Source: a virus (lineage: Duplodnaviria; Heunggongvirae; Uroviricota; Caudoviricetes). From it: a DNA stretch of 49,941 nucleotides. The stretch is taken from IMG/VR virus record IMGVR_UViG_2529293060_000008; one strand, 5' to 3'. Shown one piece after another: positions 7,780-48,607 of the stretch (position 1 is its first letter; every line of letters starts with the position of its first letter). The translations under genes were made by a program, and so were the position numbers. The notes beneath the pieces were generated by a model, which was given only the letters and a program-made list of their open reading frames with translations, had not been told where the DNA came from and made no database searches.

Positions 7780-8076
7780 TTATACCTCTGAATCAATATC
7801 AACCTGGTGGTGAGCAATGGTTTCAACCATGTACCGGATGTGTTCTGCCATGCGCTCCTGAAACTCAACATCGTCATCGAACGCACGGGTAATGGCTTTT
7901 TTGCTGACCCCGTGGCGTTGCAAATGATCGATGCATAGCGATTCAAACAGGTGCTGGGGCAGGCCTTTTTCCATGTCGTCTGCCAGTTCTGCCTCTTTCT
8001 CTTCACGGGCGATCTGCTGGTAGTGACGCGCCCAGCTCTGAGCCTCAAGACGATCCTGAATGTAATAAGCGTTCAT
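7780..8076 (-). CDS. gam: Gam (RecBCD inhibitor), short form only
   Basis: 98 aa [61 protein letters not shown]...; an in-frame stop lies 18 codons upstream, so the long isoform is not encoded. Confidence 0.9.
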
Positions 8077-8151
8077 GGCTGAACTCCTGAAAATGGCTGT
8101 GAAAATATCGCCCGCGAAATGCCAGGCTGATTAGGAAAACAGGAAAGGGGG

Positions 8152-8562
8152 TTAGTGATTCAGGCCGTTGCCGCGTCCGTCGAGAAAAACTTCCACGAGC
8201 AAGTCACGGGTATAAGTGCGCTCGATGCCGCGATGCAGATAAAGCCGTCCGCGTAAATTAGCTGATGCAGTCCAGGTACCATCTTTGTGTTTGACCAGCA
8301 TTCCTGGCATGACCGCACCGCGATTAACGGTCTGCGTTCCGTAATGTTGATGAACCATAAAAACTCCTGCCCGTAAGCTGGGCTGCTGAACATATAAAGA
8401 CTTCTGCGCGTATTCAGGCGGTGGATGGCCGCCGGTTGTCATAACTAAGCCGCCTCGTTGAAGCGACTGAGGTATGAAGTGTTGAGTTGATTTCAGCTGG
8501 TCACACCGACGTTCACGCGTCCGCTTCACCCCTCGCACTCCCCGGAGCCTGCTGAAATTCAA
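8152..8562 (-). CDS. Hypothetical early-left protein; Arg-rich N-terminus if the non-ATG start is used (possible N-like antiterminator), alternative ATG start at 8442
   Basis: Track ORF starts at TTG; Arg-rich segment [18 protein letters not shown] resembles an arginine-rich RNA-binding motif; the ATG at 8442 has a GAGG upstream; the rest is not similar to lambda N as I recall it. Confidence 0.3.
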
Positions 8563-8635
8563 GCTGCGGATCTAAGCGGTCATCGCAACGGTGAATCAGG
8601 TGATTGCCGTATCGTTGTGTTGTTGCGACATGGTG

Positions 8636-8690
8636 ACAATAGCTATTGCTATTGATGATATCAATACTTATTGCTATTGCTAGATGTGTT
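8636..8690 (-). promoter_or_regulatory. Candidate OL/pL: operator-like palindromes overlapping a leftward promoter
   Basis: Perfect palindrome CAATAGCTATTG (8636..8647), inverted repeat ATTGAT-gat-ATCAAT, repeated TTGCTATTG; on the minus strand TTGATA-17 nt-TATTGT fits -35/-10; the same 9-mer recurs in the cI-cro intergenic region. Confidence 0.4.
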
Positions 8691-8800
8691 TTGATATTAA
8701 ATATTTGATAGCAAAAAGAATTAATTTTGTGACTTGCATCGCATAGCGATAACTGAAGCGGGGTTGTGGTGGTTTTTTGAACGGTGTGTGTGATGAGGGG

Positions 8801-8831
8801 AGGCAAAAGAAAACCCGGCACGGTGGCCGGG
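8801..8831 (-). terminator. Rho-independent terminator ending the cI-side leftward operon
   Basis: Stem CCCGGC-acggtg-GCCGGG followed on the minus strand by TTTTCTTTTG, a few bases after the stop of the PIN-like gene. Confidence 0.6.
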
Positions 8832-8836
8832 ACGTT

Positions 8837-9349
8837 TTATTTCAAAGAAAAATTATGACTAGCGTATCTTGGAAGAAATTCATATAGTGTTAATGTCTTA
8901 ACGCCGTGAGAAGCAGCAGCATCCGGGATCATTATTCTTTTTTTAGGTTTGCCACCGGATGGTTTCTCATGGGTAATAATAGTATATCCATGTGTCATCG
9001 CATGGGCTATTAAAAAAGCATCTGCTTTTTCATGGCTTGCAAAATCAAACTTTGCCTTTTCGGTAACATCTAATTTAGTTGACCAATTTATTAACTTTGC
9101 ATAATTTTCTATTGAACTATGCTCATCTTCGAAGAATGATGATGGTAACTCTTCTTTAATCCATTTACACAATGGATCATCTTTTGCACATAGTTCTTTT
9201 TTTACAGCATTAATGCTATAAATCAGACCATTAATGTGTAAAGCGAGAAGAAAATCCCAAAATATTTTGCAATAATTGAAGTTATATGCAAAGTTTTTTG
9301 CCTCTATGAAGACATTACTATCAATTAAGAATTTTCCATTATGAATCAT
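8837..9349 (-). CDS. PIN-like nuclease (DUF4411-like), putative toxin or effector
   Basis: 170 aa; N-terminal FLIDSNVFIE and C-terminal DAFLIAHAMTHGYTIITHE resemble PIN-domain motifs; start ATG overlaps the upstream stop (ATGA); visibly AT-rich. Confidence 0.6.
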   Translation of the reverse strand: MIHNGKFLIDSNVFIEAKNFAYNFNYCKIFWDFLLALHINGLIYSINAVKKELCAKDDPLCKWIKEELPSSFFEDEHSSIENYAKLINWSTKLDVTEKAKFDFASHEKADAFLIAHAMTHGYTIITHEKPSGGKPKKRIMIPDAAASHGVKTLTLYEFLPRYASHNFSLK

Positions 9350-10485
9350 AGAGATTCTCGTTTTTTATAAAATTCAACAACTGTATCTGCTTTTACATTT
9401 AGCAGTACGCCTGCTTCCCTTAATGGTAATTGTTGAGACATTGCTTTGGAAATTATTATATTCGTAAGTTTTGGACTGTTACGAACAGGTAATGTGTTAA
9501 AGAAAGAACCACCATTAGATTCTTTTTTGGGCTTATTGTAAGCTTGATCTTTAATTATCTCCAAAGTGTTTCTTTCTATCAAATCTAATTGTAACGCTTT
9601 GATTGCACAAGCGAAATCACTAACCTTAAATAACTTAGAAACCTCTTTTACTCGATAATAATTATTATCGCTGGATGCATTAAGCCAGAAAGATTTGAAG
9701 AGATTATCAGGCATTAAGATTTCAGCAGCAACTTTATTACAAAAAGATTCTATGTTTTTTTCTGTGTCCCACCCAGAGACTCCATCGACTCCAAGCCAAA
9801 GATGAGCCACCTCATGAAATAATGTAAATACCTGCGCAGATAACGCGTCCGAGCTATTTACAAAAATGATCGGAGCAACGCTATCAGATATACAGAAACC
9901 ACGAAACTCTCGCGTGTCAAGTTTTCTTTTATTATTATTACCCACAACACCATTCTTGAAAACTAATACGCCAGTGTCTTCTATTAATTTTGCCACTTTA
10001 GAAAAATAGCTCTCAAAAGTGACATTTTTTATCTCTTTTTGTATATCAAAATGTATTGTGTTTGCTATGTCTGTAGCAACAACCTTATAATTTAATTTTC
10101 TATTAAATTTAAATTTACCAATAAAATCGAGTGGATCATCATTACCATTTTCTCTTAAATAGTCTTTGTACCACTCAAGTTTATATTCTATATCATAGTA
10201 AACATCAAAAAAATCTTTTCCTAACTCACGGCTATTTATAGCTTGCCTTAAGTCAGGGATCTTGGGTTTGGCTGGAGTTGGTGGCGTTTCAAGAAATAAA
10301 AAACCGAAAGGGATTCCTCCAATTTTTGCCAGTTTTTCTGCTGCGGATTTACTTACCACTCCGTTAAGAAATTTATTAATCTTTTTGGGCATGACTTGGT
10401 CAGCAAGAGTTTCGATAGAAACTCCTTGAGAATTTGCTATCCAATCAATCATCTTCCTAGACAATTGAAATTCAACCGCTGCCAT
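9346..10485 (-). CDS. ImmA/IrrE-family Zn-metallopeptidase with N-terminal possible DNA-binding region, putative antitoxin or sensor
   Basis: 379 aa; HExxH in FTLFHEVAHLW followed by ESFCNKVAAEILMP, characteristic of ImmA/IrrE (COG2856) peptidases; AGGTGA Shine-Dalgarno 5 nt before the ATG; AT-rich. Confidence 0.65.
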   Translation of the reverse strand: MAAVEFQLSRKMIDWIANSQGVSIETLADQVMPKKINKFLNGVVSKSAAEKLAKIGGIPFGFLFLETPPTPAKPKIPDLRQAINSRELGKDFFDVYYDIEYKLEWYKDYLRENGNDDPLDFIGKFKFNRKLNYKVVATDIANTIHFDIQKEIKNVTFESYFSKVAKLIEDTGVLVFKNGVVGNNNKRKLDTREFRGFCISDSVAPIIFVNSSDALSAQVFTLFHEVAHLWLGVDGVSGWDTEKNIESFCNKVAAEILMPDNLFKSFWLNASSDNNYYRVKEVSKLFKVSDFACAIKALQLDLIERNTLEIIKDQAYNKPKKESNGGSFFNTLPVRNSPKLTNIIISKAMSQQLPLREAGVLLNVKADTVVEFYKKRESL

Positions 10486-10614: not shown

Positions 10615-11307
10615 CTACCCATGCTTTCTATATGTCTGCGGCATGCTCCCGATGACTTTCCCGAAGATGAACACGCGGTTCATCTCGTCTTTCTCGATCG
10701 GGTCCCACGGTGAGTAGCTCTTGTTATCAGAGATAACCAGCAGCTTATCCTTCATCATTTGCAGGCGTTTTACATGGGCGGTGTCGTCATACAGAAACGC
10801 ATAGATACCATCACCGTCGAAAGATTTAACCGTGATATCAACGAACAGCAGATCACCTGGTTCGATCGTTCCTGACATGCTGTCACCACGCACGTTAATG
10901 ATGCGGATATTTTCCGCCTTCCTGCCATCGAACATGTGACGAGCATCGTCAAACGAGTATTCAACCGAGCGTAGAACTTCTACAAACTCACGGTTGATTA
11001 CACCCGGCCCGGCACTGACTTCTATATCAAGAACGTCAATTTTGAAGTATTTGGAATGGCTGACAGCAGGCTTCCCTGATTGTTGACCGTCATTTCTCAT
11101 CGGGCCTATGCCTGAAGAGAGCCATTCTGTTCGAACACCCAATGCATTAGCTATTTCAACAATTTTTGTTGAGCCGCGCGCGTTGCCGCTTGTCAGTCTC
11201 CAGATTGTGGGTTGAGCTACGCCAGACGCCTTTGCAAGAGCGCCTTGAGACATTCCAGATTGTTCCATCGCTAGATTTAAGCGATCAGCAAGAGTTTCTT
11301 TTTTCAT
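10615..11307 (-). CDS. cI: CI-like repressor (HTH plus LexA/S24 autopeptidase domain)
   Basis: HTH segment SQGALAKASGVAQPTIWRL; S24 motifs VSAGPG (Ala-Gly cleavage site), GDSM (Ser), VKRL (Lys); ATG at 11307 preceded by TATAAA about 9 nt upstream (near-leaderless); divergent from cro. Confidence 0.85.
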   Translation of the reverse strand: MKKETLADRLNLAMEQSGMSQGALAKASGVAQPTIWRLTSGNARGSTKIVEIANALGVRTEWLSSGIGPMRNDGQQSGKPAVSHSKYFKIDVLDIEVSAGPGVINREFVEVLRSVEYSFDDARHMFDGRKAENIRIINVRGDSMSGTIEPGDLLFVDITVKSFDGDGIYAFLYDDTAHVKRLQMMKDKLLVISDNKSYSPWDPIEKDEMNRVFIFGKVIGSMPQTYRKHG

Positions 11308-11417
11308 AAGTTTTAATTTATACGCTTGCGTATTGATGGTCAAAACACGTTTTGCTATTGCTTGGATTAATACGCATTGCTATTATTCATTCATTGCAAT
11401 ACCAATAGGAATTGATA
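11308..11417. promoter_or_regulatory. Candidate OR with divergent pR / pRM between cI and cro
   Basis: Repeated TTGCTATTG-type motifs (11352.., 11377..); TTGCTT-17 nt-TATTAT on the plus strand upstream of cro; TATAAA on the minus strand upstream of cI; ATTGC...GCAAT inverted repeats. Confidence 0.45.
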
Positions 11418-15067: not shown

Positions 15068-16681
15068 TTATTTATTGGTGAGTACTACGTTCCATGGCAG
15101 GAGTTCATCAACTCGGTTGGAAGGCCATTCCGGCAGTACGCTCAGGATATGGCGCAGATACGCTTCCGGATCGATACCGTTCAGACGGCAGGTGCCGATC
15201 AGCCCGTACAACAGTGCTCCACGCTCGCCGCCGTGATCGCTGCCAAAGAACATAAAGTTTTTCTTTCCGAGACAGACTGCACGAAGCGCTCTTTCCGCAG
15301 CATTATTATCCGCCTCCGCCAGACCGTCATCACTGTAATAACAGAGGGCATCCCACTGATTCAGTACATAGCTGAACGCTTCGCCCAGTCTGGATTTTTT
15401 CGACAGCGTACAATTCTTCTCCACCATCCATTCATGCAGCGACGTCAGTAACACTTTGCTTCGCTGCTGCCTGACGGCAAGACGCTCTGACTCCGGTAAT
15501 CCCCGTATTTCATCCTCGATGGCGTACAGTTCACTGATTCGCTTCAGTGCTTCTTCTGCCGTCGCACTTTTGCTGCTGATGTATACATCGTGGATTTTTC
15601 GCCGGGCATGGGCCCAGCACGCAACTTCTGTCAGTGCACCACCTTCACGTTCTGCACTGAACAACCTGTCGTAACCTGTGAACGCATCCGCCTGCAGGAT
15701 ACCCCGGAAGGGGCGGAGGTGTTGCTCCGGGTGTTTCCCCTGCCGGTTCGGCGAGTACGCGAACCAGACCGCTGGAGGAGATGACGAACCCACATTGCGA
15801 TCATCCCGGACATACGTCCAGATACGCCCTGTTTTCGCCTTTTTCTGACCCGGTGCCAGTACCTTTACCGGTGTGTCATCAGTGTGAATCTTGCGGGTGT
15901 TCATTACATAACGGTACAGGGCATCATTCACCGGTGTCATTAACTGGCAGCACGCGTCAACCCAGTTGGAGAGTAAGGCCCGGCTCAGTTCGACACCCTG
16001 GCGGGCAAAGATTTCACTCTGACGATACAGTGGCAGATGTTCGCAGTATTTTCCCGTTAACACGCGGGCAAGTAATCCGGGGCCCGCGATACCACGCTCT
16101 ATCGGGCGGGACGGCGCCGGTGCTTCAACAATACAGTCACATTTTGTACAGGCTTTTTTTACCCGTTCTGTGCGGATCACTTTCAGGGCACTGCTCACCA
16201 GTTCCAGCTGTTCAGCGCTGACTTCCCCCAGATAATCCAGCTCACCGCCACACTCCGGGCAACAGCTTTCTTCTGGCTCCAGGCGGTGTATTTCACGGGG
16301 AAGGTGTGCCGGTAACGGACGACGATGGCGCGACTGTCGCAACTGGCGGGGAACCTGAGGATCGTCTTCCCGCCCACTGTAACGATCGCTGTCCTGTTCA
16401 CGTTGTTTCAGCAGAGCCTCAGCCAGTTCAACTTCACGACGCAGTTTTTCAGAACGGGTACCGAACAGCATCCGGCGCAGTTTTTCTATCTGAGCCCGCA
16501 GATGTTCTATTTCCCGTTCATCTTCTTCGATCTTTTCTTCGGCACGTGTCAGTGCAGAGCGCAGGAAGGCTTCCGTCTCTTCAACCAGACTCAGTTGCTG
16601 GTCTTTCTGACGGAGGGCTTCAGCCTGCTCAGAGAGCAACCTTTCCAGCTCTGCGATGCGAATGAGGTATTTCTGACTCAT
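15068..16681 (-). CDS. tnpC: IS66-family transposase (TnpC)
   Basis: 537 aa with N-terminal coiled coil and Cys-rich segment (CCPECGGEL...CTKCDC), typical of IS66 transposases. Confidence 0.8.
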   Translation of the reverse strand: MSQKYLIRIAELERLLSEQAEALRQKDQQLSLVEETEAFLRSALTRAEEKIEEDEREIEHLRAQIEKLRRMLFGTRSEKLRREVELAEALLKQREQDSDRYSGREDDPQVPRQLRQSRHRRPLPAHLPREIHRLEPEESCCPECGGELDYLGEVSAEQLELVSSALKVIRTERVKKACTKCDCIVEAPAPSRPIERGIAGPGLLARVLTGKYCEHLPLYRQSEIFARQGVELSRALLSNWVDACCQLMTPVNDALYRYVMNTRKIHTDDTPVKVLAPGQKKAKTGRIWTYVRDDRNVGSSSPPAVWFAYSPNRQGKHPEQHLRPFRGILQADAFTGYDRLFSAEREGGALTEVACWAHARRKIHDVYISSKSATAEEALKRISELYAIEDEIRGLPESERLAVRQQRSKVLLTSLHEWMVEKNCTLSKKSRLGEAFSYVLNQWDALCYYSDDGLAEADNNAAERALRAVCLGKKNFMFFGSDHGGERGALLYGLIGTCRLNGIDPEAYLRHILSVLPEWPSNRVDELLPWNVVLTNK

Positions 16682-16711
16682 GACCGTTTTTATAATGCGG
16701 TCAGGAGTTTT

Positions 16712-17062
16712 TTACAACATTGTCAGTGAGTTACGGCTGGATGTTTTTGGCTGACGCCAGTCCAGCTTATCGAGGAGCATTGCCAGTTGCGAGCGGGTAA
16801 TGGATACCTTGCCGTCACGTACCGCAGGCCAGATAAACTGGCCTTCCTCCAGGCGTTTGGTGAACAGGCACAGACCATCAGCATCAGCCCAAAGAATTTT
16901 GACGGTGTCACCCCGTCGGCCACGGAAGATAAACAGGTGACCGGAGAAGGGATTATCATTCAGCACATGTTGTACCTGTTCTCCCAGTCCGTTGAAGGAT
17001 TTACGCATATCGGTAACGCCGGCAACGAGCCAGATACGGGTACCTGATGGGAGTGAGATCAT
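16712..17062 (-). CDS. tnpB: IS66 Orf2 (TnpB)
   Basis: 116-aa ORF, middle gene of the IS66 three-gene unit (MISLPSGTRIWLVAGVTDMRKSFNGL...). Confidence 0.75.
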   Translation of the reverse strand: MISLPSGTRIWLVAGVTDMRKSFNGLGEQVQHVLNDNPFSGHLFIFRGRRGDTVKILWADADGLCLFTKRLEEGQFIWPAVRDGKVSITRSQLAMLLDKLDWRQPKTSSRNSLTML

Positions 17063-17484
17063 CTTCCCCTCCCGGTCAGTTCACGGATCAACACTGTGAG
17101 CAGCTCTGGCGATGGATTTTCCAGCGTCATGTTACCGTGACGGAATTCCACCTTGCAGGAACTGGCACTGACTCTGGTCTGAGTGGAAGTGGATAAAGAC
17201 GGCGCAATGGCCGCCACAGGTTCTTTCTGCTCATCCGGCGTTATTTCTACAGGTAATAATTCAACGCCAGTGTCAGAAGAGGTCGTTACCGGAAGACGCC
17301 GCGAAACACGCCCTTCGTTCTGCCAGAGCCTGAGCCATTTGAAAATAACATTATCATTGACGCCATTTTCACGTGCAATCTGTGCAACACAAGCTCCAGG
17401 TTGTGATGCCAGTTCCACCATACGAAGTTTGAATTCATTCGAATAGTTTTTACGAGGTTCTTTTCGCCAGTCCTGTAATTCCAT
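17059..17484 (-). CDS. tnpA: IS66 Orf1 (TnpA, HTH)
   Basis: 141-aa ORF with HTH-like segment (ACVAQIARENGVNDNVIFKW); first gene of the IS66 unit; ATGA overlap with Orf2. Confidence 0.75.
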   Translation of the reverse strand: MELQDWRKEPRKNYSNEFKLRMVELASQPGACVAQIARENGVNDNVIFKWLRLWQNEGRVSRRLPVTTSSDTGVELLPVEITPDEQKEPVAAIAPSLSTSTQTRVSASSCKVEFRHGNMTLENPSPELLTVLIRELTGRGR

Positions 17485-25464: not shown

Positions 25465-29145
<3,681 letters not shown>

Positions 29146-29165
<20 letters not shown>

Positions 29166-30465
29166 TCTCCCGCATATTGCCAGTATGGCCTTTAATGAGC
29201 CGCTGATGCTTGAACCCGCCTATGCGCGGGTTTTCTTTTGTGCGCTTGCAGGCCAGCTTGGGATCAGCCGCCTGACGGATGCGGTGTCCGGCGACAGCCT
29301 GACTGCCGGAGAGGCACCCGCGGCGCTGGCGTTATCCGTTGATGATGACGGACCACGACAGGCCCGCAGTTATCAGGTCATGAACGGCATCGCCGTGCTG
29401 CCGGTGTCCGGCACGCTGGTCAGCCGGACGCGGGCGCTGCAGCCGTATTCGGGGATGACCGGTTACAACGGCATTATCGCCCGTCTGCAACAGGCTGCCA
29501 GCGATCCGATGGTGGACGGCATTCTGCTGGATATGGACACACCGGGCGGGATGGTGGCGGGAGCATTTGACTGTGCTGACATCATCGCCCGTGTGCGAGA
29601 CATAAAACCGGTATGGGCGCTGGCCAACGACATGAACTGCAGTGCAGGTCAGCTGCTTGCCAGCGCCGCCTCCCGGCGTCTGGTCACGCAGACCGCCCGG
29701 ACAGGCTCCATCGGCGTCATGATGGCTCACAGTAATTACGGTGCTGCGCTGGAGAAACAGGGCGTGGAAATCACGCTGATTTACAGCGGCAGCCATAAGG
29801 TGGATGGCAACCCCTACAGCCATCTACCGGATGATGTCCGGGAAACACTGCAGTCCCGGATGGATGCAACCCGCCGGATGTTTGCACAGAAGGTGTCGGC
29901 ATATACCGGCCTGTCCGTGCAGGCTGTGCTGGATACCGAGGCTGCAGTGTACAGCGGTCAGGAGGCCATTGATGCCGGACTGGCTGATGAACTTGTGAAC
30001 AGTACCGATGCGATCACCGTCATGCGTGATGCACTGGATGCACGTAAATCCCGTCTCTCAGGAGGGCGAATGACCAAAGAGACTCAATCAACAACTGTTT
30101 CAGCCATTGCTTCGCAGGCTGACGTTACTGGCGTGGTGCAAGCGACGGAGGGCGAGAACGCCAGCGCTGCGCAGCCGGACGTGAACGCGCAGATCACCGC
30201 AGCGGTTGCGGCAGAAAACAGTCGCATTATGGGGATCCTCAACTGTGAGGAGGCTCACGGACGCGAAGAACAGGCATGCGTGCTGGCCGAAACCCCCGGT
30301 ATGACCGTGGAAACGGCCCGCCGTATTCTGGCCGCAGCACCACAGAGTGCACAGGCGCGCAGTGACACTGCGCTGGATCGTCTGATGCAGGGGGCACCGG
30401 CACCGCTGGCTGCAGGTAACCCGGCATCTGATGCCGTTAACGATTTGCTGAACACACCAGTGTAA
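29146..30465 (+). CDS. C: Prohead protease / scaffold C (with in-frame Nu3)
   Basis: GTG start at 29146 gives VTAELRNLPHIASMAFNEPLMLEPAYARVFF..., matching lambda gpC; the track ORF extends further upstream into B. Confidence 0.9.
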
Positions 30466-44915: not shown

Positions 44916-47900
44916 ATGACAGTAAAAATTTCTGGCGTGCTTAAAGATGGCACAGGAAAACCAGTACAGAACTGCACCATTGTGCTGAAGGCCAGACGAA
45001 CCAGCAGCACGGTGGTGGTGAACACGGTGGCCTCTGAAAATCCGGATGAAGCCGGACGTTACAGCATGGATGTTGAGCATGGTCAGTACAGCGTCACCCT
45101 GCTGGTTGAAGGTTTTCCGCCTTCACATGCCGGGACCATTACCGTCTATGAAGGTTCCAGACCAGGTACGCTGAATGATTTTCTCGGTGCCATGACGGAG
45201 GATGATGTCCGACCGGAGGCACTGCGCCGCTTTGAGCAGATGGTGGAAGAAGTGTCACGTAACGCCTCCGCGGTTGCACAGAATACGGCAGCCGCGAAAA
45301 AATCAGCCAGCGATGCCAGTGCATCAGCCAGCGAGGCGGTAACTCATGCAACCGATGCTGCAGCCTCAGCACGTGCCGCCAGCACGTCAGCCGGACAGGC
45401 CGCGTCGTCGGCTCAGTCAGCGTCTTCCAGCGCAGGAACGGCATCAACAAAGGCCAGTGAAGCATCGAAAAGTGCTGCTGCTGCAGAGTCCTCAAAAAGC
45501 GCGGCAGCTACCAGTGCCGCTGCGGCGAAAACGTCAGAAACGAATGCGGCAGCGTCACAACAATCAGCAGCCACTTCTGCATCCGCCGCGACCACGAAGG
45601 CGTCAGAAGCAGCCACCTCAGCCCGGGATGCGGCGGCCTCAAAAGAGGCAGCGAAATCATCAGAAACGAACGCATCATCAAGCGCCAGTAGTGCCGCTTC
45701 CTCGGCAACGGCGGCAGGCAATTCCGCGAAGGCGGCAAAGACGTCTGAGACAAACGCCAGGTCTTCTGAAACGGCAGCGGGACAGAGCGCCTCAGCTGCG
45801 GCAGACTCAAAAACAGCGGCTGCATTATCTGCCAGTGCCGCGTCAACAAGTGCCGGGCAGGCCTCAGCCAGTGCCACCGCCGCCGGAAAATCGGCAGAAA
45901 GTGCTGCATCGTCTGCTTCAACAGCCACAACGAAGGCTGGCGAAGCCGCTGTACAGGCCAGCGCAGCAGCGAGGTCTGCTTCCGCAGCGAAGACATCCGA
46001 GACGAACGCGAAAGCGTCGGAAACCAGCGCAGAATCCTCAAAAACGGCTGCCGCATCGTCCGCCAGTTCGGCGGCGTCATCGGCATCATCTGCGTCTGCT
46101 TCAAAAGATGAGGCGACCAGACAGGCGTCAGCAGCAAAGGGCAGCGCCACGACGGCATCCACGAAGGCGACAGAGGCAGCTGGCAGTGCGACGGCGGCAG
46201 CTCAGAGCAAAAGTACGGCGGAATCCGCGGCAACGCGCGCTGAGACAGCGGCAAAACGGGCAGAGGATATTGCATCCGCCGTGGCGCTTGAGGATGCGAG
46301 CACGACGAAAAAGGGGATAGTACAGCTCAGCAGTGCGACTAACAGCACTTCCGAGTCACTGGCGGCAACGCCAAAAGCCGTTAAGGCCGCGTATGAGCTG
46401 GCTAACGGGAAATACACCGCACAGGATGCAACGACAGCACAGAAAGGGATAGTTCAGCTTAGCAACGCGACCAACAGCACATCTGAAATGCTGGCGGCAA
46501 CGCCAAAGTCGGTAAAGGCAGCCTATGACCTTGCTAACGGGAAATATACTGCTCAGGACGCTACGACAGCACAAAAAGGAATTGTCCAGCTCAGTAGTGC
46601 AACCAACAGCACATCTGAAATGCTGGCGGCAACGCCAAAGTCGGTAAAGGCAGCCTATGACCTTGCTAACGGGAAATATACTGCTCAGGACGCTACGACA
46701 GCACAAAAAGGAATTGTCCAGCTCAGTAGTGCAACCAACAGCGCATCTGAAACGCTTGCCGCGACACCGAAAGCAGTGAAAGCAGCTAATGATAATGCGA
46801 ATGGTCGGGTACCTTCTGCCCGTAAGGTGAATGGTAAGGCGCTTTCAGCGGATATAACACTGACGCCGAAAGATATTGGTACGCTTAACTCAACAACAAT
46901 GTCATTCAGCGGTGGTGCTGGTTGGTTCAAATTAGCAACGGTAACCATGCCACAGGCGAGTTCTGTTGTTTCAATTACGTTGATTGGTGGCGCGGGATTT
47001 AACGTGGGGTCACCTCAACAGGCAGGTATATCTGAACTTGTTTTGCGTGCAGGTAATGGTAATCCGAAGGGGATTACTGGTGCTTTATGGCAGCGCACAT
47101 CGACAGGGTTTACAAATTTTGCCTGGGTCAATACATCTGGTGATACTTACGATATTTACGTTGCAATCGGAAATTATGCGACTGGTGTAAATATTCAATG
47201 GGATTATACCAGTAATGCCAGCGTGACGATTCATACGTCACCAGCATATTCTGCTAATAAGCCGGAAGGGTTAACGGACGGTACAGTTTATTCACTCTAT
47301 ACGCCATCAGAGCAGTTTTATCCGCCTGGCGCACCAATCCCGTGGCCATCAGATACCGTTCCGTCTGGCTATGCCCTGATGCAGGGGCAGACTTTTGACA
47401 AATCTGCATACCCGAAACTTGCAGCCGCTTATCCGTCAGGCGTGATCCCTGATATGCGTGGCTGGACGATTAAGGGCAAACCCGCCAGTGGTCGTGCCGT
47501 ATTGTCTCAGGAACAGGACGGCATTAAATCGCACACCCACAGCGCCAGCGCATCCAGTACGGATTTGGGGACGAAAAACACATCGTCGTTTGATTACGGA
47601 ACCAAATCCACGAATAACACCGGGGCGCATACGCACAGTCTGAGTGGCTCTACGGGGTCTGCCGGTGATCATACTCATGGTAATGGTATTCGTTGGCCAG
47701 GAGGCGGCGGTTCTGCGTTAGCATTTTATGATGGCGGTGGGTTCACTTATGTCCAGGATTCACAGTATCAAGTAAGCCCGGGGACTTCTTCCCGTAGATC
47801 GTATTATCAACGTATTCAGACACAGTCAGCAGGTGCTCATACCCACTCGCTGTCTGGTACTGCAGCAAGTTCTGGCGCACATGCACATACTGTAGGTATT

Positions 47901-48023: not shown

Positions 48024-48607
48024 TGGCATTCAGAATGAGTGAACAAGCACGGACCATAAAAATTTATAATCTGCTGGCCGGAACTAATGAATTTATTGGT
48101 GAAGGTGACGCATATATTCCGCCTCATACAGGTCTGCCAGCAAACAGTACCGATATTGCACCACCAGATATTCCTGCTGGCTTTGTGGCTGTTTTCAACA
48201 GTGATGAGGCATCGTGGCATCTCGTTGAAGACCATCGGGGTAAAACGGTTTATGACGTAGCGTCAGGGGACGAGTTATTTATTTCTGAACTCGGTCCGTT
48301 ACCGGAAAATGTTACCTGGTTATCGCCGGAAGGGGAGTTTCAGAAGTGGAACGGCACAGCCTGGGTGAAGGATACGGAAGCAGAAAAAATGTTCCGGATC
48401 CGGGAGGCGGAAGAAACAAAAAACAACCTGATGCAGGTAGCCAGTGAGCATATTGCGCCGCTTCAGGATGCTGCAGATCTGGAAATTGCAACGGAGGAAG
48501 AAACCTCATTGCTGGAAGCCTGGAAAAAGTATCGGGTGTTGCTGAACCGTGTTGATACATCAACTGCACCTGATATTGAGTGGCCTACGAACCCTGTCAG
48601 GGAGTAA
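48023..48607 (+). CDS. tfa: Tail fibre assembly protein
   Basis: 194 aa matching lambda Tfa ([80 protein letters not shown]...); ATG overlaps the stf stop. Confidence 0.95.

Follow-up and report, generated by a model that had tools for sequence, protein, structure and literature searches.

Genomic context of the region

The window (the whole 49,941-nt stretch of DNA analyzed here, IMG/VR record IMGVR_UViG_2529293060_000008) is a segment of an E. coli chromosome that begins in ybhC and carries a lambdoid prophage in the lambda attachment site. Its leftward (minus-strand) elements are, in order, cI (10615..11343; S24 peptidase plus HTH), an ImmA/IrrE (M78) metallopeptidase gene (9346..10485), a DUF4411 gene (8837..9349), an intrinsic terminator, the promoter pL, a long leader, the kil ORF, gam, bet, and exo. 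The ImmA/IrrE and DUF4411 pair between cI and pL (8837-10485, minus strand) occupies the position of the lambda rex genes (rexAB). The ImmA/IrrE peptidase matches the PADLOC capP and RmrA models, and related phages hold different cargo between cI and pL, annotated as HipA and GevA/GevT. Rightward, the order is a YdaS-like Cro, a YdaT-like protein in the cII position, O, P, ren, an IS66 insertion, nin genes, and Q; the Q antiterminator belongs to the PF06530 family, and in the IAI1 prophage, which is near-identical, PGAP gives its counterpart the name QuuD. The IS66-family insertion (15068-17484, minus strand; transposase, TnpB-like Orf2, and HTH Orf1) separates ren from Q within the nin region. 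It is oriented against pR, and transcription from pR in this prophage copy may therefore fail to get as far as Q; the IAI1 prophage has an IS3 element in its left arm in place of this insertion. Near the right end of the window there is also a full-length match to Rfam IS009 (48366-48564, plus strand; 223.8 bits).

Among phage genome records, the closest are Perceval (genus Bievrevirus), 4A7, 4C10, 1W, 3W, D2, and the PhiR series, all of which carry the same N-less kil module, and the phage is a member of this widespread N-less (Perceval/4A7-like) group. A 764-nt stretch, running from the start of gam to DUF4411, was found in 3154 of 5426 complete E. coli genomes. The arrangement of pL, a short leader, and kil without N also recurs in Citrobacter, Kluyvera, Silvania, and Enterobacter genomes; it represents a widespread type and not a local deletion. 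A scan of genome contigs with a single Kil protein gave nine loci. Taking all of the evidence below together, we consider it very probable that the region represents the start of the pL operon in a lambdoid prophage without N, with a 68-aa Kil as the sole protein product between pL and gam.

Downstream of kil, gam (7780..8076, minus strand) encodes a 98-aa (GamS-type) RecBCD inhibitor, 96.9% identical to lambda Gam and matched end to end by Pfam PF06064 (residues 1-98 of 98, E 1.4e-64). A reading of this DNA made earlier from its letters alone (the sequence-only reading) had pointed out that the long form of Gam is not encoded. This is correct: in the translation of 7780..8196 (minus strand) an in-frame stop lies upstream of the Gam Met (8076), with 18 sense codons between. 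The missing long form is unremarkable, the 98-aa protein being the full Pfam domain. The lack of cIII, also pointed out then, is real and equally unremarkable: the gene in the cII position is YdaT-like, not lambda cII.

The pL promoter and its leader

A minus-strand promoter with the sequence TTGATA-17-TATTGT (8664-8636), accompanied by OL operator repeats (8636..8716 in all), was located by a promoter scan, by its repeats, and by an OL/OR match. The TAGCAATAGCAAT repeats surround it (8639-8682) and recur in the cI-cro intergenic region (11351-11412); six matches were found, against 1.15 expected, and six were reached in none of 100 shuffled sequences. A 31-nt inverted match joins 8673-8703 with 11331-11361, and the same promoter architecture is seen ahead of kil in Citrobacter and Kluyvera prophages. 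What had been put forward as a candidate pL is thus well supported by its -35 and -10 hexamers, its operator repeats, and the OL/OR match. Just upstream, an intrinsic terminator (8814..8831, minus strand; CCCGGCCACCGTGCCGGG followed by a T-run) closes the immunity operon of cI, ImmA/IrrE, and DUF4411. The interval from this terminator to OL (8729-8822) is about 90% conserved across phages with differing operators (58-75% identity at 8633-8728).

Judging from the position of the -10 hexamer, transcription probably starts near 8629. The pL-proximal leader (8477..8629, minus strand) is about 150 nt long, with C-rich ends around a G-rich core (C/G profile), and in blastn searches these 5' 150 nt were matched only by close relatives. 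Scans of 8477..8629 found no intrinsic terminator, nut, or put. A mini-ORF at the 5' end (ATG 8631, 11 codons) was considered and set aside: it is not conserved, with T8630C in half of the variants. An RfaH ops element was likewise dismissed, only 5 of its 12 positions matching by inspection. The kil leaders of Citrobacter and Kluyvera (L091, L094-L097) contain another conserved insert of ~95 nt, about 100 nt upstream of kil, which forms a long imperfect hairpin (GUGAGCUUCGCGGUGGUG ... CACCACCAGCGAAGUUCAC) and is absent from the window.

A 68-amino-acid Kil

Only one sizeable ORF (8152..8562, minus strand; 136 aa from a TTG) fits between gam and pL, as the sequence-only reading had noticed. 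That reading saw no obvious kil in the region; the ORF is itself kil, as shown by its matches to PHROG_294 and PRK11354 and its alignment with Rac KilR. For the 96-aa form that starts at the ATG at 8442, PHROG_294 (“Kil protein for bacterial septation inhibition”) aligns over residues 20-96 (profile positions 4-80 of 83, E 1.2e-38). The NCBIfam KilR model PRK11354, “FtsZ inhibitor protein,” matches with E 4e-17 and 61.9 bits, under its curated cut-off of 92 bits; the window Kil belongs to a related subfamily and is not a KilR equivalog. In a BLASTP alignment with Rac KilR (36% identity, E 9e-13) Met1 falls on Met1 (MVHQHYGT vs. MIAHHFGT).

This alignment supports a start at 8358 for a 68-aa KilR/phi80-type cell-division inhibitor (kil, 8152..8358, minus strand). 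The Kil homologues of HK225 (85% identical), HK639 (38%), and phi80 (about 41%) are 68-69 aa long and begin at the identical residue, and the window protein has the length (68-73 aa) and N-terminus (M-[VI]-x-x-H-[YF]-G-T) common to these and Rac KilR. The sequence itself shows a Shine-Dalgarno AGGAG (8364..8368, minus strand) at optimal spacing, 5 nt ahead of the ATG of kil. In near-identical prophages the 207-nt CDS annotated by PGAP has these same boundaries and the product name “cell division inhibitor protein.” The statement that the ATG at 8442 gives a 96-aa protein had the frame right, but the true CDS is the 68-aa Kil from 8358, and the 136-codon ORF consists of the 68-aa kil plus an accidentally open frame through its 5'UTR. 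The long form is what some phage records carry, as with the 420-nt “Kil” of Perceval.

A close known counterpart is KilR of the Rac prophage (b1352, 73 aa), an FtsZ inhibitor whose activity has been reported (PMC5793797; PMC12482147); the two proteins are homologous, and both are encoded by small early-left genes next to recombination genes. By this homology the window Kil would be expected to block cell division by inhibiting FtsZ. Rac resembles the window further in the long 5'UTR of kilR, in a right operon of the YdaS/YdaT type, and in having no N; it differs in carrying RecET where the window has Gam, Bet, and Exo, and in its leader, which bears no sequence relation to that of the window and harbors an sRNA, KilS, that has a terminator of its own. 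KilS is annotated by RefSeq in the Rac kilR 5'UTR (L315:2906-3003, E. coli K-12) and ends in an intrinsic terminator; a search for likeness between the window leader and either the Rac kilR leader or KilS found none. The 47-aa Kil of lambda shares presumed FtsZ inhibition and a position upstream of gam with the window Kil, but there is no sequence match between them, and a Pfam scan of the window ORF returned no family at all.

The open frame upstream of kil

The sequence-only reading had drawn attention to an Arg-rich N-terminus, obtained with a TTG or GTG start, and had suggested a divergent N-like antiterminator with a non-ATG start. The Arg-rich stretch is indeed present in the sequence, in the open frame upstream of kil (8359..8562, minus strand). 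In this reading the ORF from TTG 8562 or GTG 8538 would encode an N-type protein whose Arg-rich motif binds a boxB-like hairpin, and it would be promoter-proximal, as N is. The comparison of close relatives speaks otherwise. Eighty IMG/VR loci with a 100% identical Kil were collected and their upstream 520 nt aligned, giving 69 distinct sequences including that of the window. In 19 of these a TAG stands at codon 32 of the long ORF (C8469T), in four a 5-nt insertion (TCAAC) shifts its frame, and one is divergent, so that the Arg-rich frame is broken in 24 of 69 close variants despite identical Kil. Those that remain show several non-conservative changes within the putative Arg-rich motif (R to C, R to W, G to E). 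Common polymorphisms in 8359-8562, counted from the alignment, fall 6/3/5 at codon positions 1/2/3; there is therefore no third-position bias upstream of kil. The Arg codons are encoded by a G-rich block (C/G ratio ~0.45 at 8580-8491), and the motif is a by-product of this G-rich stretch that selection does not maintain.

Other observations point the same way. The long ORF has a non-ATG start without a Shine-Dalgarno sequence, its C-terminal half is a complete Kil, no boxA was found, and the pL and pR transcripts share no element. A search of the 136-aa and 96-aa translations against profile models (Pfam, PHROGs, and NCBIfam), which the sequence-only reading had proposed as a check on antiterminator identity, gave the Kil match and no N-family match for either form. 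That reading had also named what would count against an N-like protein: a Kil-type match for the ORF, which is what was found, and an N gene with a nut site elsewhere, which was not found. With its C-terminus in Kil, its Arg-rich part unconserved, no N match, no nut, and no other early-operon candidate from a scan for Arg-rich motifs, the N-like protein is rejected; we regard it as extremely improbable. For annotation, the case is a trap that can now be corrected: an Arg-rich long frame in the position of N is a short kil plus its 5'UTR.

Searches for N, nut, and put

The window ORF lies in the promoter-proximal pL position equivalent to that of lambda N, and lambda-type Gam/Bet/Exo and xis/int modules are present together with their terminators. 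Unlike lambda, the window lacks an N homologue and boxA/boxB, and nutR would not fit: the gap between cro and the YdaT-like gene (the nutR position) is only about 25 nt. No N gene is present in the PGAP annotation of a 99.6%-identical prophage or in the curated annotation of Perceval, and a scan of all window ORFs of 45-160 aa for N-terminal Arg-rich motifs returned from the early operons only Xis, antisense or internal frames, and the ORF already dismissed. The boxA consensus (YGCTCTTTA, at most one mismatch) occurs 16 times in the window against 18.8 expected, with no match downstream of pL or pR, and no motif other than the operators is common to the pL and pR transcripts. The earlier statements that the region has no obvious N and no convincing boxA/boxB nut site therefore hold for the window as a whole.

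Some N-less lambdoids, such as HK022 and HK639, use put RNA. A search for put was worthwhile here because put-using HK639 has a related cI and YdaT-like protein (45% and 52% identical to the window counterparts) as well as a Kil homologue. From 120 putL-type IMG/VR loci, 24 distinct putL sequences plus HK022 putR were used to build a covariance model (R1). Run over the whole window with filters off, its best match was at 46235 (E 0.17), away from the early promoters. The window thus resembles the HK022/HK639 put phages as an N-less lambdoid with a structured RNA in its pL leader, but differs from them in that the put model has no match and there is no second copy downstream of pR. A whole-window Rfam scan gave no gathering-score match in the region, and a permissive scan of 8000-8900 gave only chance-level matches (E ~1 or more). 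The proposal of some other arrangement for early antitermination stands insofar as N, nut, and put are all absent, but no replacement was found.

A conserved two-hairpin RNA element

Downstream of the private leader, the pL transcript contains a two-hairpin RNA element, H1/H2 (8416..8476, minus strand), defined by RNAalifold and pair counts on 24 distinct versions and by a covariance model (R2). H1 (8476-8440) is closed by an invariant helix, CAUA/UAUG, and has a loop with the conserved sequence UUYNNMGAG; the stem of 6-9 bp that joins the two is completely different between phages. H2 (8433-8417) reads GGCGG-CCAUCCA-CCGCC in turn. Among the 24 versions there are compensatory double changes at seven H1 pairs, 98.5% of cells are paired, as against 32-49% when the 3' partners are slid, and covariation is 0.418, compared with at most 0.06 in the slid controls and reached in none of 500 shuffles. 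The RNA structure is real. Because it contains numerous G-U pairs, it belongs to the pL-sense RNA; an antisense sRNA from the plus strand was considered and rejected, as many of these pairs would become A-C mismatches and no terminator follows on that strand.

In the window R2 has a single match, of 87 bits. By blastn, 8478..8397 recurs in HK225, phi80, HK639, and phages of Enterobacter, Salmonella, and Klebsiella; many uncultivated lambdoids have the element too. Of 5426 E. coli genomes, 2319 contain H1/H2, and none of the records listed has an annotated feature beneath it. There was no Rfam match to it, at gathering score over the whole window or at permissive E over 8000-8900, and a literature search for the literal H2 sequence returned no match. 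In most phages a tL1-type terminator (GC hairpin plus T6) stands 0-6 nt upstream of H1/H2; in some, its immediate 5' neighbor is a put RNA. The phi80 block (L087:2501-2559) comes right after N, between tL1A (2480-2502) and the Rho-dependent tL1B (2676-2713), and falls partly inside the “t-L1” signal of record M11919.

HK225 and mEp237 (Kil 85% and 84% identical to that of the window) and phi80 and HK639 (Kil about 40% identical) have Kil proteins of the same family and length, and in all of them, as in the window, kil or a preceding gene lies downstream of H1/H2. Unlike the window, they have further genes between pL and H1/H2 and a terminator immediately 5' of it, and phi80 has N plus nutL and HK639 has putL. 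In the window, H1/H2 comes instead after a unique 150-nt leader that has no terminator, and its H1 mini-ORF is fused in frame to kil. The element thus co-occurs with N (phi80), with put (HK639), or with neither (the window), and is therefore no substitute for N.

The H1 mini-ORF bears on a further possibility, that a 96-aa Kil isoform with a 28-residue N-terminal extension is made from the ATG at 8442, alone or beside the 68-aa form. This ATG is in frame with kil, with no stop between, in 68 of the 69 variants; a GAGG lies 9 nt upstream, within the H1 loop and 3' arm; and in most phages the same AUG opens a mini-ORF of 16-24 codons (MTTGGHPPP...), often ending at the same TAA despite indels, which in the window type runs on into kil. 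The AUG (8442-8440), however, is itself the 3' strand of the invariant CAUA/UAUG helix, and the conserved block downstream of it is read in different frames in different phages. More divergent copies of H1/H2, found by R2 in contigs selected only for carrying put, separate the two roles: in one (L128) the closing helix is retained as GAUA...UAUC with the AUG destroyed, and in two others (L099 and L120) indels alter the reading frame and H2 is retained. Because such copies lose the AUG or the frame yet keep the helices, the RNA, not the peptide, is the conserved entity, and a conserved leader peptide MTTGGHPPP was rejected on the same grounds. In Rac, HK225, HK639, and phi80 the family N-terminus begins at the residue matching 8358, and PGAP calls the 68-aa form. 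A Kil isoform made from 8442 is thus unlikely, the 96-aa form being at most an accidental one, and the 68-aa Kil from 8358 remains the favored reading.

H1/H2 is the only new item in the region; a kil of a known family, in a prophage that is itself common, is ordinary. The element covaries strongly, is found in lambdoids of the N, put, and N-less types alike, and can be named as a concrete candidate new regulatory RNA. One possibility, which we put forward tentatively and with considerable doubt, is that it is an undescribed cis-regulatory RNA of lambdoid early-left operons, carried by about 43% of complete E. coli genomes, and the main checkpoint for kil, gam, bet, and exo in the group lacking both N and put. 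Acting in this way, it might influence the fate of the pL transcript past the first terminator, for example by way of termination by Rho, the processing or stability of the RNA, or how the following gene is translated.

Possible regulation of the pL operon

In the arrangement favored here, that of an N-less pL operon with a short kil, RNA polymerase would start near 8629 when cI leaves OL, and the transcript would consist of a leader of about 270 nt followed by kil (8358..8152), gam, bet, and exo; Kil would then arrest division, by homology to KilR. From pL as far as the end of exo, the scan turned up no strong intrinsic terminator; the hairpins there are weak and lack proper U-tracts. Because of this, kil, gam, bet, and exo need no processive antiterminator, and their expression is probably independent of N. 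Complete N-independence cannot be assumed for the whole pL operon, because strong intrinsic terminators lie farther down (5656-5638, 2962-2942, 2931-2912, and 2735-2716).

The long, untranslated, and partly C-rich leader would be a plausible target for Rho, by analogy with Rac. The leader could then be a Rho-dependent attenuator holding kil, gam, bet, and exo low, with H1/H2 as part of the signal. About 270 nt are untranslated and C exceeds G in two stretches (8640-8566 and 8520-8416, C/G ratio 1.5-1.8), and the H1/H2 block corresponds to the phi80 stretch between tL1A and Rho-dependent tL1B. NusG and Rho silence kilR in Rac, where read-through switches the gene on (PMC5793797). On the other hand, Rho sites are not reliably predictable from sequence, structured hairpins are atypical of Rho-utilization (rut) sites, and the Rac leader is unrelated in sequence, with no match to R2. 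We regard attenuation by Rho as possible, if on balance doubtful; it is compatible with the N-less pL operon and 68-aa Kil favored above, and not exclusive of them.

How the genes beyond exo are reached is a separate matter. The terminators at 2931-2912 and 2735-2716 lie just upstream of xis, in a segment 95% identical to lambda 29083-29340; in lambda, the region upstream of xis is transcribed by N-modified polymerase. Very common among E. coli prophages and also represented by isolated phages, the type with neither N/nut nor put keeps the lambda terminators before xis, which makes expression of the excision genes a testable question. For xis and int to be expressed from pL, candidates are leaky termination, another promoter, or a cis element in the private 150-nt leader. 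In the last case the leader (8629..8477), alone or with H1/H2, would be a new put-like cis-acting antiterminator RNA carrying polymerase through to xis and int. It would fit the absence of N and put alongside the persisting lambda-type terminators, the presence of the module in several phage genome records, and the promoter-proximal position of the leader, like that of putL; a 13-bp long-range stem (8562-8548 with 8500-8487) is also compatible with the observed polymorphisms. The whole leader, however, folds no more stably than shuffled sequences (z-score -0.70, not significant), it varies too little for covariation analysis, its segment 8629-8596 is entirely different in one immunity variant, the pR operon has no counterpart, and H1/H2 occurs together with N in phi80 and with put in HK639. 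An antiterminator RNA of this kind is, in our estimation, quite improbable. Two IMG/VR loci (L154 and L171) show a different combination, in which putL stem I is immediately followed by a perfect boxA (CGCTCTTTAACAA) replacing put stem II, and look like put/nut hybrids.
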